The translations under genes were made by a program, and so were the position numbers. DNA of 32,000 nucleotides from Candidatus Nitrospira inopinata (GTDB lineage Bacteria > Nitrospirota > Nitrospiria > Nitrospirales > Nitrospiraceae). Of the stretch, positions 86 through 20,538 are shown one piece after another. The notes beneath the pieces are model-generated. The model was not told the DNA's origin. It made no database searches and saw nothing but the letters and a program-made list of their open reading frames with translations. Location of the stretch: contig NZ_LN885086.1 in NCBI RefSeq assembly GCF_001458695.1, positions 2,340,001 to 2,372,000 of the forward strand. The letters run 5' to 3'. Within the stretch, counting starts at the first letter, position 1; every line of letters begins with the position of its first letter.

Positions 86-169
86 GCCGCCATCATTCAC
101 CTATCCGGCGGTAGCTTAAAAAAACGACGCGCTGTAATTCAGTTGGATACCCTACTAGGGAGAAACAAT

Positions 170-1184: not shown

Positions 1185-2726
1185 ATGAAACCCGCAACCT
1201 GTTCTTTGCCGGCGATGGATTGGACTGTCCCCGATCGGCGAGTCCTGATGCTTGGTTGTGTTCTGGCCGCCGCGTTCCTTTTTTGCTACATAGACGTGCT
1301 GATCGGAATGGGCAGGCAGTGGTGGAACATCTCTTTTTATTCCTACGCTTTTTTGATTCCCGGCATCAGCGCCTATCTCGTGTGGGTCAGGCGGGATCAA
1401 CTGTGGGCGGTACAGCCGGAGCCGGCCTATGTGACCGGGACGGTCATTACCGCCGCCGGCTTGTCGGCGTTGATAGTCGGTCGCGCGGCCGGCATTCAGA
1501 CCGTGCAGCAGATGTCGTTGCTGATCACCGTTCCCGGTGTCGTGTTGTTTCTTTTCGGGTGGCGAGTCCTCAAAGTGCTTGGCCTGCCGATTGCGTTTTT
1601 AGGATTTATGATTCCCGTGTGGGACGCCGTCACCGAACCGCTCCATTTACCCTTTCAACGCCTCTCGGCCGACCTTGGCGTGCGGCTGCTGAACCTGTTC
1701 GGGATTCCGGTCTATCAGAACGGCGTGTTCATCTACCTTCCGAATATCACGCTGGAAGTCGCCAAATCGTGCAGCGGTGTCAACTATTTGATCGCGGTGT
1801 TGGCCACGTCGATTCCACTGGCGACCATTGTGCTTCATAGTGTCTGGAAGCGGATAGGCCTTGTCGTATTAGCGGTGACGGTTTCCGCCCTGGCCAACAG
1901 TTTACGTGTCGCGTTGATCGGGATGTTGGCCTATTACGATGTGAGCGGCGATCTTCATGGTCCGTACCACACGTTACACGGCATATTTACCTCGATGGTC
2001 GGCTATGTGGTCATTTTCGTGGGGCTCTGGGTGTTGTCTCGCGGGCAGAAGCCTGCTCTGCGGGTGGCCGCGCAGGGTTCGTGGAAGCTGGAATGGCCTC
2101 GCGTGCGGATCGCTTGGGTAGTGTTAGCGGCGCTGTTGGTTCTCGTTGGAGTGTCCGGATATGTCGATCGGTCGCAACCTGTTGTCCTGGCGTCGCACGG
2201 GAACGATGTATCACTGGTCGATGTCGGATGGATAGGGATTGAAGTGCCGGTGAGCGACATGGTGCCGGGCGCCGATCAGAAATGGTCGTGGGCCTATCGG
2301 GCCCGCTCCGGAGAGGATGTCAGGTTGTCGCTCTGGTATTTCGCATCTCAATCCCAAGGGAAAGAATTGATCCATGCCGAGACGTCCACTCTTCACAGTG
2401 GTGCGACTACCGTCAAGCTAAGCCTTGATGGACAGAATACGATCGAGGTCAATCGGCGAATCTTTTCCGAAGGTGGAAAACGGCAAGCGGCCGTGTTTTG
2501 GTACGATCTCAACGGCCGACTGTTGACCAGCCCTCTTGCAGTCAAGCTCTACACGGCGCTTGACGGGATGACCCACAGTCGGACGAGCGGCGCGTTGGTC
2601 TGGGTGTCAACGGATCTGCCTTCCGCTGGAGAAGAGGGCGTGGAACAAGCGACCACTCGTTTGGAAACGTTTGTCGCGCAAGCCTTCCCTCGGCTTACCC
2701 GGTTTCTTTCCGGTTCCACGCCGTAA
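1185..2726 (+). CDS. Exosortase (EpsH/Xrt family polytopic transpeptidase) fused to a C-terminal EpsI-family domain
   Basis: 513 aa with a multi-TM N-terminal half. It carries the exosortase signature residues: Cys in ITLEVAKSCSGVNYL (codon 1770-1772), Arg in ALANSLRVALIG (1905-1907) and His in YHTLHG (1968-1979). The C-terminal ~210 aa (about 2080-2726) starts with a TM (IAWVVLAALLVLVGV). It contains EpsI-like segments LWYFASQSQGKELIH and AVFWYDLNGRLLTS. Confidence 0.85.
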   Translation: MKPATCSLPAMDWTVPDRRVLMLGCVLAAAFLFCYIDVLIGMGRQWWNISFYSYAFLIPGISAYLVWVRRDQLWAVQPEPAYVTGTVITAAGLSALIVGRAAGIQTVQQMSLLITVPGVVLFLFGWRVLKVLGLPIAFLGFMIPVWDAVTEPLHLPFQRLSADLGVRLLNLFGIPVYQNGVFIYLPNITLEVAKSCSGVNYLIAVLATSIPLATIVLHSVWKRIGLVVLAVTVSALANSLRVALIGMLAYYDVSGDLHGPYHTLHGIFTSMVGYVVIFVGLWVLSRGQKPALRVAAQGSWKLEWPRVRIAWVVLAALLVLVGVSGYVDRSQPVVLASHGNDVSLVDVGWIGIEVPVSDMVPGADQKWSWAYRARSGEDVRLSLWYFASQSQGKELIHAETSTLHSGATTVKLSLDGQNTIEVNRRIFSEGGKRQAAVFWYDLNGRLLTSPLAVKLYTALDGMTHSRTSGALVWVSTDLPSAGEEGVEQATTRLETFVAQAFPRLTRFLSGSTP

Positions 2727-2769
2727 TGTAACCACGTTCGACAAGTTGGAAGGAATACAGGCGGCGGCC

Positions 2770-3495
2770 ATGGCGCAAGTTCCCTGGGATCGATTGTCGC
2801 GCAAGCGGATCTGTTTTGGCCACCAGTCTGTTGGAAAAAACCTGATTGATGGGTTCCAAGGCCACGACCAAGCGCGTCTTCACGTTGTCGAAAGCGTAAA
2901 TCCTGAAACATTTCGGCTTCCGGTTTTTGCTCATTTTCGAGTCGGACAAAATCGGGATCCCCTGTCGAAATTTCAGCACTTTGAATCAGTCATGACGTCC
3001 GGCGTGGGAGAGTCGGTTGACGTGGCGTTCTTTAAATTGTGTTACGTGGACATCACGGCCCACACCGATGTTGGGAATCTGTTCAATGCGTATCGCCGCA
3101 TGATGGACGATCTTGCCCTGACCTATCCGGCTGTCACGTTTCTCCATGTCACCGTGCCGTTGAGACGCCTTGAGAGCGGGGTGCTCCAATGGATCAAGGC
3201 GCAGTGGCGAGGAGACGACCGGGAACGCCTTGCGCAAGTCAAACGCCACGCGTACAACGAACTCTTGCGCGCCACCTATGGGCCGTCAGGCCGGTTGTTC
3301 GACTTGGCGGCTGCGGAGGCGACGTATCCGGATGGACGGGCCTCGGTTATTCGGCATGAGGGAGAGACCCTCCCCAACCTTGTCTCCGACTATACGGATG
3401 ACGGCGGCCATTTAAATGGAAGGGCCGCGGAGCGCATCGTGACTCGGCTGCTGGCTTGTATTGGATCGATTGAAGAAGCCGTGCGTGATCAATAA
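2770..3495 (+). CDS. SGNH/GDSL-like hydrolase-fold protein with an atypical block I; function unknown (possible O-acyl esterase/transferase)
   Basis: The track ORF starts at a TTG (2671) that would overlap the exosortase by 56 nt. The ATG at 2770 with GGAAGGAA about 13 nt upstream is preferred. Block-I-like ICFGHQSVG has GHQS at 2818-2829 where GDS is expected. Block-V-like DDGGHLNGRAAE has its His codon at 3409-3411. No signal peptide or TM is seen. This is a weak, motif-only call. Confidence 0.4.
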   Translation: MAQVPWDRLSRKRICFGHQSVGKNLIDGFQGHDQARLHVVESVNPETFRLPVFAHFRVGQNRDPLSKFQHFESVMTSGVGESVDVAFFKLCYVDITAHTDVGNLFNAYRRMMDDLALTYPAVTFLHVTVPLRRLESGVLQWIKAQWRGDDRERLAQVKRHAYNELLRATYGPSGRLFDLAAAEATYPDGRASVIRHEGETLPNLVSDYTDDGGHLNGRAAERIVTRLLACIGSIEEAVRDQ

Positions 3496-3521: not shown

Positions 3522-4553
3522 ATGATACAGATCGTATATTGTGACGATGGTCACGAGCAGGCTTGGGATGAGTACGTCGGCCGTCATGAGCAGGGATCGT
3601 TCTATCATTTGTTTGGGTGGAAACGGATCAATGAGTCGGCTTTTGGACATCAAACATTCTATCTGGCAGCAATGGAGGATGGGCAAATCAAGGGGGTGTT
3701 CCCCCTCGTTTATTTGAAGACCAGGCTGTTCGGAAAGATTCTCTGTTCGCTGCCATTTGTCAATTATGGCGGCCCCTGTGCGGATGATCCCTCTATTGAT
3801 CGATTGTTGATCGAAGAAGCCAGGTCCATTGTTCAACAGCACGGTATCAAATACCTGGAGATCCGCGGGATACGAAAATTGGGCGGTGATTTGCCGACCT
3901 CGGAGCACAAGGTCAGTGTCACCATCATGTTGGATCCAAACCCCGATGCCCTGTGGAATGCGTTCAAAACCGGACACCGCAACAATATCCGCCGTGCTTA
4001 CAAGAGAGGATTAACGGTCCGAGGAGGCGGTGTCGAACTGCTCGATACGTTCTACGATATCTTGAGCGTAAGCTGGAGAAATTTGGGGACGCCGTTGTAT
4101 CGGAAAGAATACTTTGCGCGTTTGATGAAGGCATTTCCGAGCGAGACCAAGATCTTCGTGTTGGATCATCACGGCGTTCCGGTCTCTGCGGCGTTGAACG
4201 GCCATTTTCGAGGAGTGGTCGAAGGCATGTGGTTGGGAGCCCTTCCCAAGGCTCGCGAGGTGGAGTCGAGCTATGTTCTCTATTGGGAGATGATCAAAGA
4301 CGCCTGCGAACGAGGCTATCAACTGTATCATCTTGGCCGATCCACGGCGGATTCCGGCGGCGAGGCGTTCAAGAAAAAATGGAATGCGTTTCCCACTCAG
4401 CTCTACTGGCAGTACGTCGTCAGGAACGGAGCGCCGATTCCCCAACTGAATGTCGGCAATCCAAAATTTCAGTTGGCCATCAACCTGTGGAAAATGCTGC
4501 CCCTGTCGATCGCCAAGGCCATAGGGCCTCTGGTGGCAAAGGGGATTCCCTGA
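3522..4553 (+). CDS. FemAB-family (GNAT-fold, aminoacyl-transferase-like) protein of the PEP-CTERM-locus-associated type
   Basis: 343 aa. Segments FYHLFGWKRINESAFGH, FPLVYLKTRLFGKILCSLPFVNYGGP and YQLYHLGRSTADSGGEAFKKKWNA resemble the FemAB-related proteins recurrently found in exosortase loci. This is recollection and was not searched. Confidence 0.7.
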   Translation: MIQIVYCDDGHEQAWDEYVGRHEQGSFYHLFGWKRINESAFGHQTFYLAAMEDGQIKGVFPLVYLKTRLFGKILCSLPFVNYGGPCADDPSIDRLLIEEARSIVQQHGIKYLEIRGIRKLGGDLPTSEHKVSVTIMLDPNPDALWNAFKTGHRNNIRRAYKRGLTVRGGGVELLDTFYDILSVSWRNLGTPLYRKEYFARLMKAFPSETKIFVLDHHGVPVSAALNGHFRGVVEGMWLGALPKAREVESSYVLYWEMIKDACERGYQLYHLGRSTADSGGEAFKKKWNAFPTQLYWQYVVRNGAPIPQLNVGNPKFQLAINLWKMLPLSIAKAIGPLVAKGIP

Positions 4554-4604
4554 GCCGGTTGCATACTCCCTATCGTTGATTCTTGCGTCGTAGCGGAAAC
4601 GATC

Positions 4605-5822
4605 ATGGCCGCCAGATTTCGATTCGTTCCACCGGCCGGCACGCCGGTCAGTTTCTCCGATGTGGCGGGCAGCATCGGGACCGCGCTTGTCCATGAAGAT
4701 TCGATGGAACGGTTTAAGACCGAACTTTGCGCGAGGGTGGGGGTCCGGCATTGTGAGTTCGTCTCGACCGGTCGGGCCGCGCTCACCCTGGCTTTGCTTG
4801 CGCTCAAGGAATTAGACGGCGGAAGGCGGCAAGAAGTCCTTATTCCGTCCTATACCTGTTTTTCGGTGCCGTCTTCCGTCGTCAAGGCCGGATTACGGGT
4901 CAGGTTGGCGGATGTGAATCCGGAGACGCTCGACTTTCTCCCGGAAAGTTTGGATCGGATCGATGGAAAACGTGTCTTGGCGGTCGTGGCCACCAATTTA
5001 TATGGTATGCCCAACGACATGGAATTCTTGAGACGACTGACTCAAGATCGCGGCGTGTATTTGGTTGATGATGCAGCCCAATGTCTGGGCGGATCGGTCT
5101 TGGGACGACAGTCCGGCACGTGGGGCGATGTGGGGCTCTATAGTTTCGACAAGGGCAAGAATGTCACATCGATCGATGGCGGAGTGTTGGTCACGAATTC
5201 CGATCGAATTGCGGCGGCAATCTCCGCGCGGGCGAGGGGGCTACGGGATAGTACGATGGGCGAATCGGTGTCCCATGTGGTCAAACTGCTGATATATGCT
5301 TCTTTTCTGCATCCTCGAAGGTACTGGATTCCCAATTCGCTCCCGTTTTTGGGATTGGGCACGACGGCCTATCGGACGGATTATCCGCTGGCTCAGTATG
5401 ACAAGTGGATGGCGCCGCTTGGCCGGCGGTTGTTCGCGCGGTTGGATACCATTGCCGCTCAGCGGCGCACCGCAGCCGAGCGGTATGCCAAGCGATTGCC
5501 GTGGGGGAGCCTTCTCCGTCCCATAGTCCCGAGGCCGACGGCGGTGCCGGCGTATCTACGATATCCGGTCTTGGTTGCTCCTGAATGCCGAGACAGGGTG
5601 ATGGAATCGCTCCGGCAAAAGGGAATTGGAGCGACCGCCTCTTACCCGTCGGCTATCAACGACATTCCTCAGCTGCAAAGCCTGTTGCAATTGGAAGATC
5701 AGACAATCTCCGGGGGGCGGGATCTTGCCAAGCAAATCCTCACCCTTCCCACTCATGGTTACGTGACAGAAGAAGATCAAAATCGAATCGCGGCGATAAT
5801 AGGCGAAACCCTGGGCCGCTAG
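4605..5822 (+). CDS. DegT/DnrJ/EryC1/StrS-family PLP-dependent sugar aminotransferase
   Basis: STGRAALTLALLAL...EVLIPSYTCFSVPSSVVKAGLRVRLADV...LVDDAAQCLG...GDVGLYSFDKGKNVTSIDGGVLVTN. This is the typical fold-type I sugar aminotransferase layout, with the Schiff-base Lys in SFDKGK. Confidence 0.85.
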   Translation: MAARFRFVPPAGTPVSFSDVAGSIGTALVHEDSMERFKTELCARVGVRHCEFVSTGRAALTLALLALKELDGGRRQEVLIPSYTCFSVPSSVVKAGLRVRLADVNPETLDFLPESLDRIDGKRVLAVVATNLYGMPNDMEFLRRLTQDRGVYLVDDAAQCLGGSVLGRQSGTWGDVGLYSFDKGKNVTSIDGGVLVTNSDRIAAAISARARGLRDSTMGESVSHVVKLLIYASFLHPRRYWIPNSLPFLGLGTTAYRTDYPLAQYDKWMAPLGRRLFARLDTIAAQRRTAAERYAKRLPWGSLLRPIVPRPTAVPAYLRYPVLVAPECRDRVMESLRQKGIGATASYPSAINDIPQLQSLLQLEDQTISGGRDLAKQILTLPTHGYVTEEDQNRIAAIIGETLGR

Positions 5823-5843
5823 TCACGCGACGCCATCTTCCCA

Positions 5844-6962
5844 ATGTTTTCCGGGAACATTTTTTCTTCGATCGAGAGCGTTGGACTCGACGCTCGTGGC
5901 TGGAACGCCTTGGCGATCAAAAGTCCAACCCGAACGATCTTTCAAACGTACCAATGGCTTTGGAGTTGGGAAAAGACGTTCAAGGACCGATGCGAGCCGC
6001 TGTACATCGTAGTTGATTCCCCGGATGGATCGGGCATCGAGGCGGTGGCTCCGTTGATGATCACGAAAGAGTTTCCGGGCCAACGGGCCATCAAATTTGT
6101 GGGCGATGGCAAGGCCGACTATTGCGACCTGGTGTGTGTGGATGGCCGTCTGGATCTGCTGGAGAAGCTCTTCGACCAGCTCTTTGCGGTGAGGGAGCGA
6201 TGGGATTGTATTCAGTTGAATAGCATTCCGGCGGAATCGCCGACTGTTGCGGGGATTCAGCATCTCTGCCGTCGATACGGCTGCCGCATGTTCCAACGCA
6301 ATCTCTATTCTAGTCCCACCTTGCTGATCAAGGGGCAGGAAGAGGAAGCGTTGAAGGTATTCAATAAGTACAGTTTGCGCCGCCGGCAGAATTATTTTCA
6401 GCGCCAGGGCCGCCTCACCTTCAAAACGGTGCAGGGACCGGAAGTGATGTCTTATCTGGATGGTTTCTTCTCGCAACACATCGCCCGCTGGGCCAACACC
6501 GGGAGTCCCAGTCTGTTTCTTGACGAGAAGAATCGATCATTCTACCAGGAATTAGCGCAGGCTCTGTGTGGAACGGATTGGCTTGTGTTGTCGATTGTGA
6601 AGCTGGATGGGCGGCCGTTGGCGATGCACATTGGGTTCGACTATGAAGGAAAGCTGTTATGGTACAAACCCTGCTTTGATCCAGCCTATGCCAAACATTC
6701 TCCGGGGCTGGTCTTGCTCCGCTACTTGATCGGTTATGCAATTGAGCAAAAACGGGATGAGTTCGACTTCTCGATAGGCGACGAGCCGTTCAAGCAGCGG
6801 TTCTGCAATCATGTGCGCACGACCGTTCAGGTTCAGGTTTTTAAGGACAGCTTCACCTATGCCCTTGCTAAAACGAGGCAAAAACTGGGTTCGATAAAAA
6901 GAGCGCTGCACGGAAAAAACGAGGAAAACCGATCGTGCAAGTTCGTGACCCTGTCGATGTGA
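5844..6962 (+). CDS. CelD/BioF2-like GNAT acyltransferase (FemAB-like fold, Acetyltransf_6-type), paralog 1
   Basis: 372 aa. N-terminal W..L......IFQTYQWLWSWEKTF and C-terminal DEFDFSIGDEPFKQRF are characteristic of CelD-like GNAT proteins in polysaccharide loci. Confidence 0.7.
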   Translation: MFSGNIFSSIESVGLDARGWNALAIKSPTRTIFQTYQWLWSWEKTFKDRCEPLYIVVDSPDGSGIEAVAPLMITKEFPGQRAIKFVGDGKADYCDLVCVDGRLDLLEKLFDQLFAVRERWDCIQLNSIPAESPTVAGIQHLCRRYGCRMFQRNLYSSPTLLIKGQEEEALKVFNKYSLRRRQNYFQRQGRLTFKTVQGPEVMSYLDGFFSQHIARWANTGSPSLFLDEKNRSFYQELAQALCGTDWLVLSIVKLDGRPLAMHIGFDYEGKLLWYKPCFDPAYAKHSPGLVLLRYLIGYAIEQKRDEFDFSIGDEPFKQRFCNHVRTTVQVQVFKDSFTYALAKTRQKLGSIKRALHGKNEENRSCKFVTLSM

Positions 6963-7978
6963 GCGTCATCATTCCGACGTACAATCGCGCCCACTTGGTG
7001 GCCGAGGCGATCGAGAGTGTGCTGCGCCAGACGAGGCCTCCCAGGGAAATTATCGTTGTCGATGACGGATCGACGGATGACACGAAACAGGTGTTGGCTT
7101 CGTTCGGCGATCGGATTACGGCTATTCATCAGGACAACAAGGGGGTAGGAGGGGCGCGTAACAGGGCTTTGGAGGCGGCTCAGGGGCAGTACCTTGCTTT
7201 CTTGGACTCCGATGACCTCTGGATGGAACGAAAATTAGAATGGCAAGTTGCCATCATGGAACAATTCCCCAATTTGGGATTTCTATTCTCAGACTTTGTG
7301 ATCACAGGCAATAAAAGCAAGGTGATACCCAAAGGGCTGAGCACCTGGTTTCACGAACCTCTCCAGTGGGACAAGGTGTTTGAGGAAACGGCTATGGTCC
7401 TGGTGCCCTGTGCGGCTCGCGAAGAACCGGTTGCCCTGTACTCGGGGCGTCTGTACCATGCGTTGCTCGCCAAGCCCTATATTCTTCCTAGTTGCGCGAT
7501 TGTGCGGGCTGCTTGCGTCACACCAGACATTCGGTTTCCGGAGGACAATCACCATTGCTCCGATTGGGAGTTTTTTGCGCGATTGGCTCGTAGGAGCCAG
7601 ACCGGATTGATGGATGTGGAGACGACGATCAATCGAGGCGGAGACGAGTGGCCGCGATTGACCCATATGAGCACCGCGGAAAAAATCCGTTTCCACCTGC
7701 GCATGATTGAAGCAGTCTGGAAGGCAGACGACACGTTTTTTTCCGCTCACCGCGACGAGGTTGAGGAAATCGAGGCCGATCTCTGCGTGCAGTTGGCGAG
7801 ACATTGCATGATGGACTCGAAAGTGTCGGACGCTCGGGCGGCAATCAGGCGCTGGTTTGCGATCGGCAAATTTCGTCAATGGCCCATGGGAATGGCCCTT
7901 GTCGCATGCGCTTGGTTGCCCGCAAGCGGAGCGGCGCTGAGAGCCACTCGCTCGTTGATGAGAAGCGGATCCAAATAA
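6935..7978 (+). CDS. Family-2 glycosyltransferase (GT-A fold)
   Basis: GTG start at 6935 with GAGGAA at 6921-6926. It overlaps the upstream gene by 28 nt. Motifs: VSVIIPTYNRAHLVAEAIESVLRQT, EIIVVDDGSTDDT, and FLDSDD (DxD). Confidence 0.9.
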   Translation: MQVRDPVDVSVIIPTYNRAHLVAEAIESVLRQTRPPREIIVVDDGSTDDTKQVLASFGDRITAIHQDNKGVGGARNRALEAAQGQYLAFLDSDDLWMERKLEWQVAIMEQFPNLGFLFSDFVITGNKSKVIPKGLSTWFHEPLQWDKVFEETAMVLVPCAAREEPVALYSGRLYHALLAKPYILPSCAIVRAACVTPDIRFPEDNHHCSDWEFFARLARRSQTGLMDVETTINRGGDEWPRLTHMSTAEKIRFHLRMIEAVWKADDTFFSAHRDEVEEIEADLCVQLARHCMMDSKVSDARAAIRRWFAIGKFRQWPMGMALVACAWLPASGAALRATRSLMRSGSK

Positions 7979-8006
7979 CGGACGATTCTTACACGGCCAA
8001 AGGCGA

Positions 8007-9122
8007 TTGGTGGAGAGCGAACATTGGTATGAAATCGAGGTGGTCAAAAGCCGCTCGGTACTGGAAGGGATGGCCCGCGAATGGGATGCCCTTGCGGAAG
8101 GGGCGGGAGTGCCCACCTTGAGCCATGCGTGGATTTTGGCCTGCGTGGAAGCCTTTCATGTACAGGATCAACTCTTCATCATCGCCCTTCGCCGACGAGG
8201 AGAGCTTGTCGGGCTTGCGCCGCTAGTGGAGAGCAGGCGAGGTCGTGTCTCTAGATTGGAATTGATCGGCGTATCTTTCCTCTATGAACCATCGGGACTC
8301 TTGTATCGCGACGGCGAGGCATTAACCTATCTTGCCCGTTCCATTATGGAATGCGGATTCCCGGTCGTGCTGGCTAGAATACCGGCGGACTCGCCCGTTA
8401 TGTCCCAGTTCCCTTCCGGTCCGCTCGCTTCGCATCATGGGATCATCATGAAGGGAGGTATCGGATACTCGCTGATGATTCCGATCTCATCGGGATGGAC
8501 TGCCTATCTGGAGAAACTTTCCTCTCGCCGTCGTTATGACATCAGGCGGGCTCGCCGCCGTGCCGAAGAAGCGGGTTCGGTGACCGTTCGGGTTTTTTGC
8601 CCGAATGAAGAGGAGATCGAGCCTGGTCTTGCCGAATTCGTCAGAATTGAAGCGACAGGGTGGAAGGAACATCACGGTTCAAGTCTCAAGCGGCGCAAGA
8701 ACATGAGGCTATTTTTTCAGCGGTACGCAACGTTGGCGTCGCGATCCGGCGCTTTTCGGTTCGCGTTTCTCGACGTTGCGGGGACGCCGATCGCCGCGCA
8801 GCTTTCGGCCGTGTACGCCGACCGTTTTTGGGTCTTCAAGATCGGCTATGACGAAGTATGGAGCCGCTGCTCGCCGGGATGGCAGTTGCTGACGGAAACA
8901 ATCAAATACGCTTTTGAACATAAGCTGGCGTCATATGAATTCCTGGGAAGCGATGAATCATGGTTGCACGGATGGGTCACGGAGCGCCGGGGATATCAAA
9001 CGGTCTGGTATTATCCCGCCACTTGGCGCGGTTTCCACGGCTTGGCGTCGGATGTCATGGATCGCATCAAGACGCGTATGATGACGGCGGGGGGGAAGAC
9101 GAAGCGGGTCGCTTCATCATGA
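8007..9122 (+). CDS. CelD/BioF2-like GNAT acyltransferase (FemAB-like fold), paralog 2
   Basis: Starts at TTG 8007 or GTG 8010. N-terminal EWDALAEGAGVPTLSHAWILACVEAF and C-terminal ASYEFLGSDESWLHGW follow the same layout as 5844-6962. Confidence 0.7.
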   Translation: MVESEHWYEIEVVKSRSVLEGMAREWDALAEGAGVPTLSHAWILACVEAFHVQDQLFIIALRRRGELVGLAPLVESRRGRVSRLELIGVSFLYEPSGLLYRDGEALTYLARSIMECGFPVVLARIPADSPVMSQFPSGPLASHHGIIMKGGIGYSLMIPISSGWTAYLEKLSSRRRYDIRRARRRAEEAGSVTVRVFCPNEEEIEPGLAEFVRIEATGWKEHHGSSLKRRKNMRLFFQRYATLASRSGAFRFAFLDVAGTPIAAQLSAVYADRFWVFKIGYDEVWSRCSPGWQLLTETIKYAFEHKLASYEFLGSDESWLHGWVTERRGYQTVWYYPATWRGFHGLASDVMDRIKTRMMTAGGKTKRVASS

Positions 9123-10069
9123 AGTCGGTCGAGCAAAAAGGGATATCCTGGTGGATCGCTCTGATTTTTATAATCGGTCTGTTCGTCTTACCGAACCTCA
9201 TGGCCAACTCTCTTTCGAAGATATGGTTGCGGATGCCGGGTTTGGACAAGCCGGTTCATTTTCTGGCGTTTGTTGCGGGATTTCTTGTTGTGTATTTCGC
9301 ACTGCTTCGTTCTCCATGGCCTCGTGATGAGCGGAACAAAATTGGTTTGGCGGCAGGTTTCACCTTGGCGGTTGCCGTGGCGGACGAAGCGCAGCAGGCT
9401 CTTATGAGAATCGGTCGGACGGCGGAATCTGGCGATCTGGTTGCGGATACGGCGGGCATCCTTGTTGGTGTAGTGGTGGTGAGAAGCCGGCAGCTTGGAA
9501 TGAAATGGGCGGTGCCCTTGATCCTGCTGCTGTTGGTTCCGGTAGCAGGAGTGACGGCAAAAACCCATCACGATTTAAAACATTACAACCTCGGCATGTT
9601 ATACGAGCGGGAAAAAGACTACCAAAAAGCCAGAGAGGAATATCAGCTTGCCTTGGACAGCGGGTTCGAATCCGCTCAACTGTACAACGCCATTGCATGG
9701 CTCGACATTGAATTTTTAGACGCCGATCCGAAACTGGTTGAACCCTACGCCGCTCGGGCCTTTGCGCTTGATCCCGACAATCCGGACATTCTCGATACTT
9801 ATGGGTGGGTCTTGGTTCAAGCCGGAAAGATCTACGACGGGCTGCCGCTTATCGAGAAAGCCAAGCGATTAAAGCCGGACATCTACTGTATTGATCTCCA
9901 TCTGGGTGCGACTCATCTGGCGCTAGGAATGCGTCATCAGGCAATTCAATTTCTCCGTGAACAAGTGAATCGGACCGGGAGCGACCGTTTCGGTCAAGCC
10001 GCCGCCCGGTTGCTGGCACAGATCGAACAATCGTCCAGTCTACGCCACACTAATCGGCTTATTGGATGA
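9119..10069 (+). CDS. Membrane protein: VanZ-like N-terminal domain fused to C-terminal TPR repeats
   Basis: The track ORF begins at 8960 inside the previous gene. The ATG at 9119 overlaps the upstream TGA (ATGA) and begins MKSVEQKGISWWIALIFIIGLF. VanZ-like segments are DKPVHFLAFVAGFLVVYF, DEAQQ and GDLVADTAGILVGVVVV. TPR-like repeats run from about 9575 to 10030 (LGMLYEREKDYQKAREEYQLALD, LDTYGWVLVQAGKIYDGLPLIEKAKRLKPD). Confidence 0.55.
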   Translation: MKSVEQKGISWWIALIFIIGLFVLPNLMANSLSKIWLRMPGLDKPVHFLAFVAGFLVVYFALLRSPWPRDERNKIGLAAGFTLAVAVADEAQQALMRIGRTAESGDLVADTAGILVGVVVVRSRQLGMKWAVPLILLLLVPVAGVTAKTHHDLKHYNLGMLYEREKDYQKAREEYQLALDSGFESAQLYNAIAWLDIEFLDADPKLVEPYAARAFALDPDNPDILDTYGWVLVQAGKIYDGLPLIEKAKRLKPDIYCIDLHLGATHLALGMRHQAIQFLREQVNRTGSDRFGQAAARLLAQIEQSSSLRHTNRLIG

Positions 10070-11124
10070 AGATCATGGGTCGCGTAAAGTATGCAATCAA
10101 ATTGGTCATTGTCTACGGCCTCTATGGCCTCGGTTTACTTCAACTCTGGCAACGAATTGTGCTTCGACGGCGGGCCGTCGTCTTGATGTACCATCGCGTC
10201 CTCACCGAAGAGGAAATGAAGGTAACGGGGTCACATCCAGCTATCGTGGTCAAGCGGGAGACCTTTGCGGCGCAGATGGAGGTGATCAGCAAAAGATTCA
10301 AGGTGCTCACGATCGACGAGTTTGTCGAGCGGATGGAGCGCAGAATACCGTTTGAAAACTCAACTTGTCTTGTGACATTTGATGATGGCTGGAAAGACAA
10401 CTATTACAATGCCTTTCCAATTCTGACTCGCTACAGGATTCCGGCGGTTATCTTTTTGCCTGTCAACTACATTGGGGAGCAACGACTGTTTTGGCAAGAA
10501 GCACTGGTCCATGGACTCCTTGCTGCCATTAGAGAGGTTAGGAAAGATCCGTCCAAGGCTTCCATACTGCGCGAAATTATTGCTACGCTGGATTTAGAAG
10601 AGGTTCTCGATCTTGCTGGCGTTGATCCCCGTCATTGCATTATCGAACTTATGACCTTAAAGAGGAAACAGTTTGATCCGTTGGATGTGGACAAGGTTCT
10701 CTCTCGGATTGAAAGAGAACTAACCATTAATTGGGATGAGGCGAGCGCCATAGATGGTTTCTTGACATGGGAACAGGTTGCGGAAATGGCGAAAGAGGGG
10801 GTTCGCTTCGGTGGCCATGGTGCCGAACATTATTTACTTAGTCAGCTTTCGCTTGATGAGGCTCGTAAGGACATCGAAGAATGTACATCCGTGCTGACTA
10901 GTCGGCTCAAAGAGCAACCTGTAAGTTTTAGCTATCCTCGTGGCTACCGGACATCTCAGGTAGTCGAGTTCGTTAAACAGTCCGGCTACCGTGTGGCGTT
11001 TATTGCAAACGGTGGTAGTGTGCGGTGCGATGATGATCGATTTACGGTGCAGCGGATCAATATCTTTGAAGAAGACACGAAGACCGTTCCGCTTTTCTTG
11101 GCCAGGATTGTCGGGTTGTTTTAA
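10066..11124 (+). CDS. Polysaccharide deacetylase (NodB homology domain) with N-terminal membrane anchor
   Basis: The ATG overlaps the upstream TGA (ATGA at 10066-10069). An N-terminal TM is followed by LMYHRV, VTFDDGWKDNYYNAFPILTRYRIPAVIFL, FGGHGAEH and SFSYPRG. Confidence 0.85.
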   Translation: MKIMGRVKYAIKLVIVYGLYGLGLLQLWQRIVLRRRAVVLMYHRVLTEEEMKVTGSHPAIVVKRETFAAQMEVISKRFKVLTIDEFVERMERRIPFENSTCLVTFDDGWKDNYYNAFPILTRYRIPAVIFLPVNYIGEQRLFWQEALVHGLLAAIREVRKDPSKASILREIIATLDLEEVLDLAGVDPRHCIIELMTLKRKQFDPLDVDKVLSRIERELTINWDEASAIDGFLTWEQVAEMAKEGVRFGGHGAEHYLLSQLSLDEARKDIEECTSVLTSRLKEQPVSFSYPRGYRTSQVVEFVKQSGYRVAFIANGGSVRCDDDRFTVQRINIFEEDTKTVPLFLARIVGLF

Positions 11125-11137
11125 ATGGATCTGATCC

Positions 11138-12325
11138 ATGAATATCCTGGTGACAGATGGAGAGACAAGACCATCTCTGGCGATCGTACGCTCATTGGGG
11201 AGCAGAGGACATCGTCTTTTCGTAGGAGCGAAATCCCAGCCGTCATTGGCCCAGGTCTCGCGCTATTGCCATCAGCGATTCACATATCCTGATCCTGTTA
11301 CGAATGTAATCGGATTTATAGAGGCAGTTCAGCATGTTATACGGAGGGAACGAATTGATGTCGTTCTTCCAGTGACGGAAATTACCACAGCGTTGATCGT
11401 CCAAAAAAAGAGCGAGATCGAAGGGTGTTGCCGAGTTCCTTTTCCACCCGCCACTATTTTTAACTATGCGGCCGACAAGGCAAAGGTGCTGGCTCTTGCC
11501 GAAAAGTTGTCAATCCCTATTCCGATAAGCGTTGTGCTGGATAGAGTGGGTGCGAATCCTCCATGGCCGGAGGGACTTCGGTATCCAGTGGTCATCAAGC
11601 CGCATCGCTCTCGTATCTATGTTAATGGACAATGGAGGTCGACGTCCGTCACCTACGCCGATAATGAAGAAGAGCTCAATGTCATTTTGAGCGGCAAGGA
11701 TGCGTGGGAGTACCCGCTTCTTCTTCAGGAGCGGATCGTCGGGCCTGGAATCGGCGTGTTTCTCTGTTATCAGCGGGGCCGATGTGTGGCTCAGTTCAGC
11801 CACCGGCGGCTTCGCGAAAAGCCGCCCTCAGGAGGAGTCAGCGTGCTGTGCGAAAGCGTGCAGATCCCCACTCAAGCGTTGCGCCATGCCAAGATCCTCT
11901 TGGATGAGTTGCAATGGGAGGGTGTGGCGATGGTCGAGTTTAAGTTGGACAGTGCCGATCAAAAATACAAGCTTATGGAGATCAATGGTCGGTTCTGGGG
12001 GTCTCTTCAGCTCGCGATCGACGCCGGTGTGGATTTTCCCGATCTTCTCATCCAGACTTTGGGGAATGAACCGCTACGGCCGATTGAGACGTACCGCATT
12101 GGAGTAAAAAGTCGCTGGTTGATGGGCGATCTCGATGCTCTATTGATGCGGCTTCTCAAGAATGAGGCCGAGCTTCATCTCCCTCCTGGGTATCCGGGAA
12201 AAATTGAATCCATTTTTCGATTTGTAGGTTCATGGGGGCAAAATGTTTGCAGCGAAGTTTTCCGGCTCTCCGACGTAAAACCGGGGTTGCATGAGATAAA
12301 AAGATGGTTCTTTTCTCATGCTTGA
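11138..12325 (+). CDS. ATP-grasp fold carboxylate-amine ligase (predicted ATP-grasp enzyme family)
   Basis: MNILVTDGETRPSLAIVRSLGSRGHRLFV N-terminus. Also YPVVIKPHRS (ATP-binding Lys), LLLQERIVGPGIGV and MVEFKLD...KLMEINGRFWGSLQLAIDAGVDFP (E-x-N metal site). Confidence 0.75.
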   Translation: MNILVTDGETRPSLAIVRSLGSRGHRLFVGAKSQPSLAQVSRYCHQRFTYPDPVTNVIGFIEAVQHVIRRERIDVVLPVTEITTALIVQKKSEIEGCCRVPFPPATIFNYAADKAKVLALAEKLSIPIPISVVLDRVGANPPWPEGLRYPVVIKPHRSRIYVNGQWRSTSVTYADNEEELNVILSGKDAWEYPLLLQERIVGPGIGVFLCYQRGRCVAQFSHRRLREKPPSGGVSVLCESVQIPTQALRHAKILLDELQWEGVAMVEFKLDSADQKYKLMEINGRFWGSLQLAIDAGVDFPDLLIQTLGNEPLRPIETYRIGVKSRWLMGDLDALLMRLLKNEAELHLPPGYPGKIESIFRFVGSWGQNVCSEVFRLSDVKPGLHEIKRWFFSHA

Positions 12326-12334
12326 TGGTCTTCC

Positions 12335-13474
12335 ATGAAAGTCGGATTGGAAATGCTGTTCTGGCTGTCGGTCTTGGGGGTGCTGTATCCCTACGCCGGC
12401 TATCCGATCCTTTTGTGGATTGTGGGACGGGTGAGGGGCAAGCCGCCTCGATCGCTTGAAGCAGGGGGCTTTTGTCCTTCCGTCTCGGTGATTATCCCGG
12501 CTTGCAACGAGGAAAAGCGGATTGAAAAAAAGATCGCGAACACAAAGGCGCTCCGTTATCCTGAAGACAAGCTGGAGGTGTTGTTTGTGTCCGATGGCTC
12601 GATGGATCGAACGGTGGAGCTGATTCGGCGGCATGTTTCCCGTCAGTACCATTTGATCGAATTACCAGTGCGCGGTGGAAAAGCTGCGGCGCTGAATGCC
12701 GGTCTTGAGCGGGCCAAGCATGACATCGTAGTGTTCTCCGATGCGTCGATCGAGTTGGAGCCCGACGCTCTGTCTGCCCTTGTCCAAGGATTTTGCGATC
12801 CCAATGTCGGGTGCATTTCAGGAGAAGACAAAATTCCCGAGTCGGGTGGAGAGGCTTGGTACGGGCGATACGAACTGCTCCTCCGCCGGTTGGAGTCAAA
12901 GGTGCATTCCATCGTCGGCGCGAGCGGCTCGTTCTATGCGCAGCGACGAGTGCTCTGTACGCCGTTCGAGGAGGGGTTGGCGCCTGATTTTGTGTCGGTT
13001 TTGAAAACGGTCGAGCGGGGATTTCGCGCCGTCAGCGAGCCGGCGGCGATGGGCACGATGACGAGCGTCAAAGATTCCAAACAGGAATTCCAGCGCAAGG
13101 TTCGAACCTTGATCCGAGGCATGACGGCGCTCTTTGCGTACAAGCGGCTGCTCAATCCTCTCAAGTTCGGCATGTTTGCGGTCGAGCTTTGGTCACACAA
13201 AATCTTGCGGTGGATGGTACCGTTCTTCCTAATCGCCGCGTTGGTGAGTTCTCTGGCGATGCTGGAATCGCCGTGGTTTGTGGCGGTGTCCGTCATCCAG
13301 ATAGCTTTCTACGGGGCCGCGTTGCTGGCGTTGGCAGGTATCAAGAGTGTGCGGCAATCGCTTGTCGGCAAGGTAGCATTGTATTTTTCCGTGGTCAATG
13401 CGGCAATCGTGGTCGCATGGTGTAAGTATTTGGTCGGCGTCAGGCAGGAACTATGGACTCCCACGCAGCGGTAA
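12335..13474 (+). CDS. Integral-membrane family-2 glycosyltransferase with synthase-like topology
   Basis: An N-terminal TM (LFWLSVLGVLYPYAGYPILLWIV) is followed by a GT-A core: VSVIIPACNEE, VSDGSMDRT, VFSDASIE, ISGEDK. It has a degenerate QxxRW-like EFQRKVRTLIRG and 3-4 C-terminal TM segments. Confidence 0.8.
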   Translation: MKVGLEMLFWLSVLGVLYPYAGYPILLWIVGRVRGKPPRSLEAGGFCPSVSVIIPACNEEKRIEKKIANTKALRYPEDKLEVLFVSDGSMDRTVELIRRHVSRQYHLIELPVRGGKAAALNAGLERAKHDIVVFSDASIELEPDALSALVQGFCDPNVGCISGEDKIPESGGEAWYGRYELLLRRLESKVHSIVGASGSFYAQRRVLCTPFEEGLAPDFVSVLKTVERGFRAVSEPAAMGTMTSVKDSKQEFQRKVRTLIRGMTALFAYKRLLNPLKFGMFAVELWSHKILRWMVPFFLIAALVSSLAMLESPWFVAVSVIQIAFYGAALLALAGIKSVRQSLVGKVALYFSVVNAAIVVAWCKYLVGVRQELWTPTQR

Positions 13475-14322
13475 CAAAGTCCATGACCGAAAAGCCGATG
13501 TTTTTCCAGAACGGCGTTTGCCGCCTCTTCGGGCTGGTTCATGAGCCGGTCGGCGTTCCTTCCGGCGAGGCTTGGCTCTTCTGCCATCCGTTCATAGAGG
13601 AAAAGCTGTGGGCGCACCGGGTCTATGTGTCGTTCGCGAGGATTCTGGCCGCGCGCGGCGCCTGGGTGCTCAGATTCGATATGATGGGAAATGGCGACAG
13701 CGAGGGACGATTTTCGGATATCTCCGTGGACACCATGTTGGCTGATATCGATTGTGCGCTCAATTGCCTCGGTCGTCTGAGCGGAGCCGCGCACCATGCC
13801 AATCTGTTGGGACTGCGGTTGGGAGGGACGCTGGCCGCCTTAACGGCCGAGCGGTCGTCGAAGGTCGGAAAATTGATCCTGTGGGATCCCGTCGTGGACG
13901 GCGCGAAGTACATGCAGGAGCTTTTGCGGAGCAATCTGACGACGCAATCCGCGGTCTATAAGGAAATTCGTTATAACCGAGAAACGCTGGTGCGGATGAT
14001 GCGCGAAGGTTCAACCGTCAACATTGATGGCTATGAACTGGCGTACCCCTGTTACGAGCAAGTGTCGGCGATTAATTTGAAGGAGGGGCCCAAGCGATTC
14101 GCCGGCCGGTGTTTGATTGTCCAAATCGGGAAAGAGGGGCAGCCGATTCAGCCGGATCTCAAAGCGTTACAAGAAACGTATCAAGCCGCCACATTACGCA
14201 CCGCGGTGGAAGAGCCGTTCTGGAAAGAAATCAAGCGATGGTATCGGGCCGCTCCGAGTCTGTTCGAGACGACATTGGGATGGATGCAACATGACGAGCG
14301 AAGTGTTTCCTGCAACGTTTGA
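13453..14322 (+). CDS. Alpha/beta-hydrolase-fold protein (exosortase-system-associated 'hydrolase 2'-like) with an Arg at the nucleophile-elbow position
   Basis: ATG at 13453 overlaps the upstream gene by 22 nt; the alternative start is ATG 13483. FCHPFIEEK, LRFDMMGNGDSEG and the elbow NLLGLRLGGTLAA (GLRLG at 13810-13824, Arg codon 13816-13818). No obvious post-beta8 catalytic His. Confidence 0.6.
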   Translation: MDSHAAVTKSMTEKPMFFQNGVCRLFGLVHEPVGVPSGEAWLFCHPFIEEKLWAHRVYVSFARILAARGAWVLRFDMMGNGDSEGRFSDISVDTMLADIDCALNCLGRLSGAAHHANLLGLRLGGTLAALTAERSSKVGKLILWDPVVDGAKYMQELLRSNLTTQSAVYKEIRYNRETLVRMMREGSTVNIDGYELAYPCYEQVSAINLKEGPKRFAGRCLIVQIGKEGQPIQPDLKALQETYQAATLRTAVEEPFWKEIKRWYRAAPSLFETTLGWMQHDERSVSCNV

Positions 14323-15883: not shown

Positions 15884-16555
15884 ATGATGAGTCGCCGAAT
15901 TCGCCATCAAGTGGCGTATGCGCTGTCGAGCGAGAAGCCGGCTTCGATTTTTAGGAAGATGTGGCTTCGTCTCAAGCACGATTGCTACATTTCTCTCAAA
16001 GCCGATATCTTCCATGCCGACAGAATCGTCTTGGATCAGGGGGTCTACATCTATCAGTACGCCATGCTCAATTTGAACTCCCGTCACTCCAAATATTCCC
16101 CCAGTATCAAAATAGGGAGGCATTCTCGGGTCCTACCCTACGCTAAAATTATTCCACAGGAAGGATTCGTCAACATCGGCGCTCACTGCACAATTCAATA
16201 TGGTTGCCTGTTGTACGGAGTAGGGGGCCTGGAGATAGGCGACAACGCGAGAATCGCGGCTCATACCGTCATCAGCCCGATGAATCACATTTATGCGGAC
16301 CCCGATACGCCGATCTGGAAGCAAGGCGAGACCGCTATAGGGATTAAGATCGGAAACGACGTGTGGATCGGAAACGGTGCAAAAATTCTCGATGGGGTCA
16401 CAATCGGGGATGGGTGTGTAATTGGGGCGGGCAGTGTCGTGACCAAGAGTATCCCTCCCTTCTCGGTGGCCGTGGGTGTTCCGGCAAGAGTCATCAAGCA
16501 ACGGAGGTCACCCGTGCAATCGGACTCGCCTCGGCAGCATAGCTTCTCTTCATAG
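15884..16555 (+). CDS. Left-handed beta-helix (hexapeptide-repeat) acetyltransferase
   Basis: Tandem hexapeptide repeats: IGDNARIAAHTVI and IKIGNDVWIGNGAKILDGVTIGDGCVIGAGSVVTKSIPPFSVAVGVPARVIK. Confidence 0.85.
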   Translation: MMSRRIRHQVAYALSSEKPASIFRKMWLRLKHDCYISLKADIFHADRIVLDQGVYIYQYAMLNLNSRHSKYSPSIKIGRHSRVLPYAKIIPQEGFVNIGAHCTIQYGCLLYGVGGLEIGDNARIAAHTVISPMNHIYADPDTPIWKQGETAIGIKIGNDVWIGNGAKILDGVTIGDGCVIGAGSVVTKSIPPFSVAVGVPARVIKQRRSPVQSDSPRQHSFSS

Positions 16556-20473: not shown

Positions 20474-20538
20474 CGCGATGATGAATCGGTCCGGCTAGTG
20501 GGGGGAGGAGTCTGTTTCGGGATTATGGGGGAGGAGCC

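Follow-up and report, generated by a model that had tools for sequence, protein, structure and literature searches.

A candidate amino-sugar decoration cassette beside exosortase W in a Nitrospira exopolysaccharide operon

Introduction

Here we analyse positions 3522-12325 of a 32,000-nucleotide stretch of the Candidatus Nitrospira inopinata genome (contig NZ_LN885086.1, forward-strand positions 2,340,001 to 2,372,000; hereafter the window), where three tandem GNAT-type transferases, a sugar aminotransferase, a CE4 (NodB-type) deacetylase, and an ATP-grasp ligase are encoded shortly downstream of exosortase W (XrtW). We propose, with a probability of roughly 0.55, that these enzymes decorate amino sugars with amide-linked substituents. 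On our reading the locus consists of two layers: an exosortase-linked core (a TIGR03006 CE4 deacetylase, the first transferase GNAT1, an AsnB-type amidotransferase, and acyl carrier protein (ACP), ligase, and NadE-like genes) and an accessory module that includes the other two transferases, GNAT2 and GNAT3.

Exosortases were predicted in 2006, and Fem proteins are not discussed by Haft (2006). A pathway of related composition is described for P. gingivalis and T. forsythia, in which the cargo of the type IX secretion system is amide-bonded to 2-N-seryl-3-N-acetylglucuronamide or 2-N-glycyl-3-N-acetylmannuronic acid (Veith et al., 2020, PMC7468200). The type IX secretion sortase uses the free amine of this linking sugar as its acceptor; the CE4 enzyme VimE is proposed to strip the 2-N-acetyl group, the AsnB-type protein WbpS makes the uronamide, and VimA, which matches TIGR03019, sets the amino acid, since a cross-species swap turns Ser into Gly (PMC7468200). 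The same role was explicitly proposed there for the TIGR03019 proteins of exosortase loci (Veith et al., 2020, PMC7468200), so the idea of an amino-acid-modified sugar as the exosortase acceptor is not new. Our searches of the literature on exosortases together with FemAB, and on XrtW, found nothing relevant, and the literature searched held no experiment identifying the exosortase acceptor.

Gene families were assigned by Pfam and NCBIfam profile searches against curated cutoffs. For comparison, we used 79 loci from a one-genome-per-species scan with a GNAT2 alignment, each taken with flanks of ±10 kb. The genes at the centre of the analysis are as follows:

1185..2726, + strand: exosortase W, fused at its C-terminal end to EpsI (NF038142, 608 bits against a cutoff of 425)
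3522..4553, + strand: GNAT1, FemAB-family PEP-CTERM-system-associated transferase (TIGR03019, 332 bits against a cutoff of 260, over the full model length)
4605..5822, + strand: DegT/DnrJ/EryC1 sugar aminotransferase (Pfam, 177 bits)
5844..6962, + strand: GNAT2, CelD/BcsL-type PF13480 tandem-GNAT protein with a predicted FemX fold (Acetyltransf_6, 115 bits)
6935..7978, + strand: GT2 glycosyltransferase between GNAT2 and GNAT3 (Pfam Glycos_transf_2, 124 bits; in 41 of the 79 loci)
8007..9122, + strand: GNAT3, second PF13480 tandem-GNAT protein with a predicted FemX fold, lacking the Fem catalytic Lys (Acetyltransf_6, 94 bits)
10066..11124, + strand: CE4/NodB deacetylase, the second CE4 of the locus, PgaB/IcaB-like, with a split domain (Pfam, 76 bits against a cutoff of 23)
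11138..12325, + strand: ATP-grasp carboxylate-amine ligase (PF15632, 35.7 bits against a cutoff of 29.1)

An earlier reading of this DNA, made from its sequence alone (hereafter the sequence-only reading), had singled out six of these genes: the three GNATs, the DegT aminotransferase, the NodB-type deacetylase, and the ATP-grasp ligase. Their coordinates and strand match the public gene calls, except that GNAT3 starts at 8010 and the deacetylase at 10075 in the public record, and all six family calls, together with that of the upstream exosortase, were upheld by the profile searches.

Three Fem-type tandem GNATs

By its sequence, GNAT1 is a bona fide TIGR03019 member in an exosortase-marked exopolysaccharide locus. 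It also matches Pfam FemAB (57 bits against a cutoff of 24) and Acetyltransf_6 (60 bits against a gathering threshold of 22), and it reaches FemX as a single sequence (E 1e-7 to 1e-6) as well as through a 17-sequence profile, which finds S. aureus FemX at E 1e-11 and Weissella FemX at E 1e-10. Its invariant F283-K284 pair falls on the ‘AFKK’ motif of S. aureus FemX in the alignment. In most of the XrtW loci examined, a TIGR03019 gene stands close downstream of the exosortase, either adjacent or with one gene between; the recurrent FemAB-like gene noted in the sequence-only reading, together with a deacetylase, is indeed curated as a signature of exosortase loci (TIGR03019, TIGR03006).

GNAT2 and GNAT3, whose PF13480 homologues are named ‘CelD/BcsL family acetyltransferase’ by JGI, match neither Pfam FemAB nor TIGR03019, and on the latter count lie outside the TIGR03019 family. 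The three proteins had been called paralogs, which is a loose use of the word. GNAT2 and GNAT3 are 22% identical; GNAT1 has no BLAST similarity to either of the others, and only profile-profile alignment connects it to them (95% probability for GNAT2-GNAT1, 99.9% for GNAT2-GNAT3).

AlphaFold2 models built on alignments of 72 (GNAT2) and 77 (GNAT3) sequences were both tandem GNATs of high predicted quality (pLDDT 92.9 and pTM 0.88 for GNAT2; pLDDT 94.1 and pTM 0.91 for GNAT3). In Foldseek searches of the PDB, the top match of both predicted structures was Weissella FemX, at E 1.7e-14 and TM-scores of 0.62-0.71 for the GNAT2 model and at E 4e-12 and 0.56-0.63 for the GNAT3 model. The other top matches of both were S. 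aureus FemX, the aminoacyl-tRNA-dependent peptide synthases Sba18/Sbb17, FemA, and the C-terminal aminoacyl-phosphatidylglycerol synthase domains of MprF (0.5-0.7 across this group with FemX). Acetyl-CoA-dependent tandem GNATs of the VipF/MshD type scored lower for both models (0.33-0.42), while the clavulanate-pathway tandem GNAT 2wpw (0.44-0.53) fell lower for GNAT2 and among the tRNA-dependent matches for GNAT3. Profile and structure comparison with FemX thus assigns all three proteins to the Fem-type tandem GNATs, as had been expected from the sequence.

The active site separates the three. In FemX, Lys305 is the only reactive active-site residue, and in DhpH-C both Phe328 and Lys329 are needed for activity (2026 review, PMC12945691). 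GNAT2 has the pair F316-K317, unchanged across 72 sequences, which profile alignment places on the Phe-Lys pair of GNAT1 and, transitively, on that of FemX. Because this dyad is retained, GNAT1 and GNAT2 look like working Fem-type catalysts. GNAT3, judged from its residues, is probably either mechanistically different or non-catalytic.

A conserved unit with two gene fusions

The open reading frames (ORFs) of the 79 loci were assigned to 35 reference operon proteins by best BLASTP match. All six genes co-occur in 12 loci, comprising seven from Nitrospira, four from metagenome-assembled genomes (MAGs) of Gammaproteobacteria/Chromatiales (L043, L044, L063, L077), and one from a Deltaproteobacteria MAG (L036), whose exosortase is a true XrtW (522 bits). 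GNAT2, GT2, and GNAT3 are found together in 37 of the 79; the CE4 gene is present in 21 of the 22 loci that have the ATP-grasp gene, and the DegT gene in all 22 loci that have GNAT1. The Nitrospira gene order from the ACP gene to the ATP-grasp gene, continuing to the hydrolases where the flank reaches them, is kept down to approximately 55% identity.

Two kinds of fusion link members of this set. In five Acidobacteriota MAG loci (L023, L024, L025, L026, and L034; e.g., L024:8717-11050, + strand), ATP-grasp and GNAT2 form a single ORF of approximately 770 residues, yet their genes are 4 kb apart in the window; the five fusions were found by BLAST domain assignment, and three were confirmed with Pfam. 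In the Deltaproteobacteria MAG, GT2 and GNAT3 are fused in a 711-residue ORF (L036:11054-13186, + strand). These two independent Rosetta-stone fusions argue that GNAT2 works with the ATP-grasp ligase and GNAT3 with the GT2 glycosyltransferase. The co-occurrence and the fusions go far beyond chance, and the genes are a real conserved functional unit beside the exosortase.

The unit has relatives in other settings. Steroidobacter-type loci with XrtA carry the order CE4(DUF3473)-GNAT2-like-GT2-GNAT3-like-AsnB-ACP-ligase-NadE; these loci contain no TIGR03019-like best match, and their GNAT2-like protein matches no NCBIfam model. In 29 of the 79 loci no exosortase-system marker lies within 10 kb, many of these being short contigs or remote homologues.

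The core around exosortase W

The XrtW/EpsI protein matches both Pfam Exosortase_EpsH and DUF3485/EpsI, has eight transmembrane segments in a hydropathy scan, and ends approximately 800 bp before GNAT1. Its gene product is identically encoded on two NCBI assemblies, and its close homologues carry Nitrospira names. The 10 kb upstream of this exosortase were read on contig CZLC01000016.1 (GCA_001458715.1), part of which is identical to the window wherever checked, and contain, in order, a Wzc-type co-polymerase/kinase, a TIGR03013 priming transferase, a TIGR03006 CE4 deacetylase, an RfaH-like protein, an AsnB-type amidotransferase, an ACP, and a TIGR03098 protein. The core features are as follows:

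Upstream of the window: priming transferase (TIGR03013, 424 bits against a cutoff of 393)
Approximately 7 kb upstream of the first base of the window: XrtA system polysaccharide deacetylase, CE4 (TIGR03006, 366 bits against 276)
Upstream of the window: AsnB-type amidotransferase (TIGR03108, 436 bits, under cutoff; the NAGGN amidotransferase model also matches, at 370 bits, under cutoff)
Upstream of the window, after the AsnB-type gene: ACP
L002:5770-8901, + strand: acyl-AMP ligase with two TIGR03098 ‘exosortase A system’ modules (834 bits against a cutoff of 592)
143..1171, + strand: NadE-like ATP-pyrophosphatase/amidoligase, annotated as NAD+ synthase (NF002048, 502 bits)

The upstream TIGR03013, TIGR03006, and TIGR03098 markers place the six genes inside a canonical XrtA/PEP-CTERM-type polysaccharide locus with XrtW, in which XrtW takes the place of exosortase A. 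The window is nearly one co-directional + strand operon in the ORF listing; in its first 13 kb, promoter-like matches are below the shuffle mean, and terminator-like matches are approximately 1.9 standard deviations above it, which is not clearly beyond shuffled expectation. The best explanation is that the window represents the middle part of a Nitrospira Wzx/Wzy-dependent exopolysaccharide operon of approximately 45-50 kb and of the XrtA/PEP-CTERM type. Matches to the models of the stp1/stp2 glycosyltransferases, the O-ligase-like protein, hydrolases 1 and 2, and the amidotransferase of that system stay under their cutoffs.

What belongs to XrtW itself was read from four distant XrtW loci, that is, the surroundings of XrtW homologues at approximately 40% identity. 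All four share a constant run of a TIGR03006-type CE4 deacetylase (with DUF3473), AsnB, an AMP-ligase, a NadE-like protein, and XrtW/EpsI, with a small ACP-sized ORF after AsnB in three. XrtW is followed, directly or one gene on, by a GNAT-type gene, which is clearly FemAB-like in three; in the fourth (L089), the 349-residue product of the gene next to XrtW has only a weak Acetyltransf_9 match. Three of the four have a priming transferase ahead of the CE4 gene, three have a second CE4, and two have a DegT gene further on. An extra PF13480 GNAT is present in one and absent from the rest, and an ATP-grasp gene, of another type, is likewise present in one. The invariant core around XrtW therefore consists of the TIGR03006 deacetylase, AsnB, ACP, AMP-ligase, the NadE-like protein, XrtW, and one FemAB gene. 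The notion that XrtW loci are always marked by three GNATs was considered and rejected, as these four loci have only one or two GNAT-type genes. Given this variable content, GNAT2-GT2-GNAT3 and CE4-ATP-grasp look like a separable accessory module and not an obligatory stem-building line.

A homologue of the NadE-like protein occurs in 34 of the 79 GNAT2-centred loci, and in each of the four distant XrtW loci its gene comes shortly before XrtW (adjacent in three, with one small ORF between in L089). This recurrence and position make it a member of the polysaccharide pathway. Its annotation as an NAD+ synthase is probably misleading, and it is more likely a polysaccharide-pathway amidoligase.

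The aminotransferase, deacetylase, and ligase

The DegT protein has generic PDB relatives (WbpE, QdtB, and perosamine synthases). In the second CE4 protein (10066..11124), T104, D106-D107, H251 and H255 (His-x3-His), and Y290-P291 are invariant in 22 homologues, and the motif-5 His is not kept in the window protein. A single-sequence search of the PDB with the ATP-grasp protein gave no match; a profile of 17 homologues found the carbamoyl-phosphate-synthetase-like protein 2pn1 (E 8e-15), VanA/D-Ala-D-Ala ligase, cyanophycin synthetase, RimK, and L-amino-acid ligases, and residues K154, E281-x-N283, and R285 are invariant. A hydropathy scan predicted no transmembrane segment in the GNATs, the DegT protein, or the ATP-grasp protein, which suggests that all of them are cytoplasmic.

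Proposed mechanism and its alternatives

We propose that the enzymes act in the cytoplasm, probably on a nucleotide- or lipid-linked repeat unit. In the core, GNAT1, the TIGR03006 deacetylase, and the AsnB-type amidotransferase would be the counterpart of VimA/VimE/WbpS: a free sugar amine would come from the TIGR03006 deacetylase or the DegT aminotransferase, and GNAT1 would move an amino acid onto it by Fem-type chemistry with its catalytic Lys, aminoacyl-tRNA being the most likely donor. In the accessory module, a second Fem-type N-aminoacyl or acyl group would come from GNAT2, and the ATP-grasp ligase, working with GNAT2, would make a further amide bond via an acyl-phosphate intermediate, its target being either the carboxylate of a sugar or amino acid or else an amine that the second CE4 enzyme has released. 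GNAT3 may act together with GT2, either with an acyl-CoA or acyl-ACP donor or as a substrate-binding partner. What the analysis shows are gene content, folds, motifs, synteny, and fusions; from these we infer the acceptors, the donors, the order of steps, and any use of the product as the amine to which the exosortase would attach cleaved PEP-CTERM proteins.

Several observations weigh against this proposal. PDB sequence searches with GNAT2, with GNAT3, or with the 72-sequence GNAT2 profile returned no FemX, which is why structure prediction was needed for these two proteins. GNAT3 lacks the catalytic Lys: its W319-L320 aligns to the Phe-Lys pair of GNAT2, and Trp319 is invariant. The protein also gives a weak match (51 bits) to the model of BspF, an acyl-CoA-dependent crotonyl-transferase, rising to 84 bits for its Steroidobacter homologue, and both GNAT2 and GNAT3 hold an invariant Ser-Pro-Gly which, as we read the positional equivalence, stands where classical GNATs bind the pyrophosphate of CoA. 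The locus has an ACP of its own, together with three adenylation domains and a PaaK/CapK-like ligase, and a search of the window for tRNA genes found none. The second CE4 protein is PgaB/IcaB-like, has an N-terminal hydrophobic stretch, and may act on exported polymer in the periplasm, in which case it could not feed a cytoplasmic ATP-grasp ligase. A C-terminal motif scan of the window and of the upstream 10 kb of the source contig found no PEP-CTERM cargo gene, nor was there one among the genes called in the approximately 10 kb downstream on a related contig; the same scan did detect PEP-CTERM proteins in Acidobacteriota loci L006, L027, and L029. Finally, the gene-level data single out no donor. 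Aminoacyl-tRNA is the one favoured by the Phe-Lys dyad and by the structural neighbours. The locus-encoded carrier protein and adenylating enzymes mean that it is not the sole candidate, and these enzymes, together with the Ser-Pro-Gly motif of the PF13480 proteins, leave room for acyl- or aminoacyl-thioester donors.

The strongest competing account is plain decoration, in which N-acylation from acyl-CoA or acyl-ACP (with acetyl, hydroxyacyl, crotonyl-like, or fatty acyl groups) would tune the charge, cohesion, or hydrophobicity of the matrix and play no part in PEP-CTERM attachment. The BspF-like GNAT3, the ACP with its accompanying adenylation domains, and the PF13480 proteins in the 29 loci without a nearby exosortase marker all fit such an account, as does the precedent of HfsK, a FemX-like tandem GNAT with two paralogues that affects holdfast cohesion (PMC5362036). 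The number of extra GNATs also varies across XrtW loci, as decoration genes do, and the LbH O-acetyltransferase and SGNH proteins of the operon would provide other decorations of the same polymer. GNAT1 and GNAT2, however, retain the dyad typical of tRNA-dependent Fem enzymes, and users of aminoacyl-tRNA dominate the structural neighbours; moreover, VimA, the only TIGR03019-like protein dissected experimentally, specifies an amino acid (PMC7468200), and in the majority of the XrtW loci examined TIGR03019 genes keep their place shortly after the exosortase. On this balance we find plain decoration somewhat unlikely.

Amino-sugar decoration through the two layers might also extend to protein anchoring: the cassette would build an aminoacyl- or short-peptidyl-amino sugar on a lipid-linked unit, the free amine of which would be the exosortase nucleophile, and the accessory module would diversify this stem between lineages. 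We put this forward as a speculative extension that is unlikely as it stands. If true, Gram-negative bacteria would have in it, on a polysaccharide, their counterpart of both the pentaglycine bridge on lipid II and the type IX ‘linking sugar’.

A stricter version, close to that of the sequence-only reading, would have GNAT1, GNAT2, GNAT3, and the ATP-grasp ligase build a short peptide sequentially on one sugar amine, its free amine being the XrtW nucleophile for PEP-CTERM proteins. The tight clustering and synteny with XrtW in Nitrospira and L036 speak for it, as do the ATP-grasp-GNAT2 fusion, which fits consecutive steps on one substrate, and the analogy to FemXAB with sortase and to VimA with PorU. 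It is nevertheless quite improbable: the accessory genes are absent or replaced in the four other XrtW loci that keep the exosortase and a GNAT-type gene, the GNAT2-GT2-GNAT3 set is found in XrtA loci as well, where there is no TIGR03019-like best match, the GT2 gene between the GNATs (fused to GNAT3 in L036) points to the modification of different sugars, GNAT3 has lost the catalytic Lys, and no cargo gene is seen in the window or the flanks examined. A non-sugar acceptor, such as a membrane lipid (as for MprF), peptidoglycan precursors, or the PEP-CTERM proteins themselves, is suggested by the best structural matches, which include the C-terminal domains of MprF as well as FemX/FemA, whose substrates are peptidoglycan precursors; it is highly improbable, given that the genes sit among glycosyltransferases, a sugar aminotransferase, a flippase, and a polymerase, that GNAT3 is fused to GT2 in one locus, that no MprF-type membrane domain is present, and that VimA acts in sugar biosynthesis (PMC7468200).

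The interpretation offered by the sequence-only reading is thus partly supported. Its multi-step machine survives as a conserved unit, on the strength of the 12 loci and two fusions, but not as a fixed trio, since three GNATs are not constant at XrtW loci and one of them is without the Lys. Its co-occurrence with exosortases holds for the one FemAB gene of the XrtW core; GNAT2, GNAT3, and the ATP-grasp gene are accessory, as the 29 marker-free loci also indicate. The NodB-type gene, which had been cast as the amine-exposing partner, does keep CE4 catalytic residues, but the canonical partner of TIGR03019 is TIGR03006, and the NodB-type gene pairs with the ATP-grasp gene.

Other genes of the operon

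The remaining features that bear on the locus are as follows:

2671..3495, + strand: conserved protein between XrtW and GNAT1 (no Pfam or NCBIfam match)
9119..10069, + strand (mechanical ORF from 8960): VanZ-like membrane domain with TPR repeats (Pfam VanZ, TPR)
12335..13474, + strand: membrane GT2 glycosyltransferase of the Glyco_transf_21 type, after the module (Pfam; in 36 of the 79 loci)
13453-14322 and 14117-15283, + strand: two alpha/beta hydrolases, kin of exosortase-A-system hydrolases 2 and 1
20539..21591, + strand: GFO/IDH/MocA sugar dehydrogenase (Pfam; UDP-GlcNAc 3-dehydrogenase model 103 bits, under cutoff; best PDB match 3q2k)

The start of the 2671..3495 ORF is probably internal, with public calls of 167-241 residues, and homologues occupy the same position in 17 loci, Delta- and Gammaproteobacteria MAGs included; GHQS... 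and DGGHLN stretches in the protein recall SGNH hydrolases and may hint at such a relationship. The VanZ-TPR protein, kept in 13 Nitrospira-type loci, has three transmembrane segments, and its TPR part resembles the C-terminus of PrsT (TIGR02917, 88 bits), a PEP-CTERM-system lipoprotein; at a similar place in a Competibacteraceae locus (L007), VanZ is fused to Laminin_G_3.

Upstream of the window, an RfaH/UpxY-like NusG paralogue inside the operon (L002:2757-3263, + strand) suggests operon-specific antitermination of a very long transcript. The Nitrospira TIGR03098 ligase consists of two complete adenylation modules in tandem within one 1043-residue protein; in other lineages it is a single module of approximately 510 residues after a small ACP.

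Downstream of the second GT2 gene, the order is two alpha/beta hydrolases, a low-molecular-weight tyrosine phosphatase, and an LbH acetyltransferase. The hydrolases (13453..15283) match TIGR03101 at 119 bits and TIGR03100 at 67 bits, both under cutoff, and are syntenic in Nitrospira, L036, and L063. The LbH transferase (15884-16555) was considered as a WbpD equivalent and rejected, its best matches being maltose and galactoside O-acetyltransferases; against the lipopolysaccharide-biosynthesis acetyltransferase 3mqg, which we take to be the WbpD homologue WlbB, it scores only 39 bits. Further downstream in the window lie GT4 genes, a Wzx flippase, dehydrogenases, a Wzy-type polymerase, an SGNH protein, more GT4 genes, and a PaaK/CapK-like adenylating enzyme. 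Among the dehydrogenases, the GFO/IDH/MocA protein (20539..21591) is, from its family matches, a candidate 3-dehydrogenase that may give a keto sugar to the aminotransferase; its best PDB match, 3q2k, and also 3q2i, we presume to be WlbA, a WbpB homologue. The neighbours of the GFO/IDH/MocA protein on either side (region 19358-22391, + strand) are a Zn-ADH-like protein and a protein of 267 residues that has no Pfam match; both have weak BchC-like matches and may represent a split or degenerate dehydrogenase pair.

The downstream flank, approximately 10 kb past the window, was read from the gene calls of a related contig. That contig (L087:11448-15356) encodes a second AsnB-type amidotransferase and a 678-residue GFO/IDH/MocA-epimerase fusion, together with methyltransferases, a GDSL protein, DUF218, and more GT4 genes beyond the window end. 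Other related loci (L005/L028, L088, L091) contain genes for PAPS reductase-like proteins, CysN/APS kinase, sulfotransferase, or ComA/2-phosphosulfolactate phosphatase, which suggests that their polymer variants are sulfated or sulfonated. The PEP-CTERM genes of the Acidobacteriota loci (L006/L029:15926-16780, - strand; L027:15197-16075, - strand) occur in loci with several PF13480 GNATs (three called in L006/L029) and lie, at least in L006/L029, approximately 0.5 kb past the last GNAT gene; the encoded protein ends in ...VPEPGSLLLVGTGLFGLLASARRRRSR, and the L006 gene adjoins one for a large TPR protein.

Significance

The cross-phylum extended cassette, the two fusions, the Fem dyad kept in GNAT1 and GNAT2 but lost in GNAT3, and the constant NadE-like enzyme by XrtW appear to be undescribed so far. 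They place the exosortase-linked FemAB gene in a larger conserved set of amide-bond-forming enzymes. While nothing is overturned, the fusions and the Fem dyad turn a published speculation into predictions that can be tested by mutation, naming residues, enzyme pairs, and donors. PEP-CTERM systems are tied to floc and biofilm formation in wastewater bacteria, and Nitrospira are key nitrifiers with an aggregated mode of growth, which gives the chemistry of their matrix polymer practical interest. Relatives of GNAT2-GT2-GNAT3 are found in the cultured Steroidobacter flavus and Peristeroidobacter soli (L067, L068), which may be easier to handle than Nitrospira.

Comparison with known systems

The closest comparison in gene content is with the Wbp/Vim pathway of type IX secretion. 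By family match, the Nitrospira locus has candidate counterparts of VimA and VimE in its TIGR03019 protein and two CE4 enzymes, and it shares an AsnB-type protein (as WbpS), a DegT protein (as WbpE), and a GFO/IDH/MocA protein (as WbpB, under model cutoff). The transpeptidase differs, being the membrane exosortase XrtW here and PorU there, and the LbH transferase is nearer to an O-acetyltransferase than to WbpD. No homologue of the UDP-sugar 6-dehydrogenase WbpA was found in the window, the upstream 10 kb, or the approximately 10 kb downstream on the related contig, so that the complete WbpA/B/E/D set for a 2,3-diamino uronic acid is not present in the locus as covered by window and flanks. 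In addition, the Nitrospira locus has two further Fem-fold GNATs, a second CE4 enzyme, the ATP-grasp ligase, the ACP, adenylating enzymes, and the NadE-like protein.

Compared to the XrtA/PEP-CTERM system (type 1; NCBIfam TIGR03013, TIGR03006, TIGR03019, TIGR03098, TIGR03087/88, TIGR03097, TIGR03100/101, and TIGR03108), the locus shares TIGR03013, TIGR03006, TIGR03019, and TIGR03098 above cutoff. It differs in that XrtW fused to EpsI replaces XrtA, that no PEP-CTERM gene is seen nearby, and that no system-specific NCBIfam model covers GNAT2-GT2-GNAT3 or CE4-ATP-grasp.

With FemX/FemA/FemB, DhpH-C, PacB, VlmA, and Orf11/Sba18, the Nitrospira proteins share the tandem-GNAT fold, the Phe-Lys dyad (GNAT1 and GNAT2), and a basic helix that opens the second domain. 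The predicted acceptor is a polysaccharide amino sugar, as opposed to a peptidoglycan stem peptide or a natural product, and GNAT2 and GNAT3 differ from the Fem enzymes in having no sequence-level similarity to FemX, GNAT3 also in the missing Lys.

In N-acetylglutaminylglutamine amide biosynthesis, Ngg combines a GNAT and an ATP-grasp domain in one protein and, with the AsnB-type protein AsnO, makes a small N-acyl peptide amide without tRNA. This arrangement parallels the ATP-grasp-GNAT2 fusions and the AsnB gene of the Nitrospira-type system; the GNAT of Ngg, however, consists of just one classical acetyl-CoA domain, and Ngg yields a free osmolyte as opposed to a sugar substituent.

HfsK of Caulobacter crescentus, which modifies holdfast cohesion, is proposed to acylate amines exposed by the CE4 deacetylase HfsH, and a possible anchoring role has been raised (Sprecher et al., 2017, PMC5362036). 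HfsK is under cyclic di-GMP control via a C-terminal tail and, unlike the Nitrospira GNATs, has no exosortase link. By its description, the holdfast system shares with the Nitrospira locus the combination of a FemX-like tandem GNAT and a CE4 deacetylase, tied genetically to polysaccharide synthesis.

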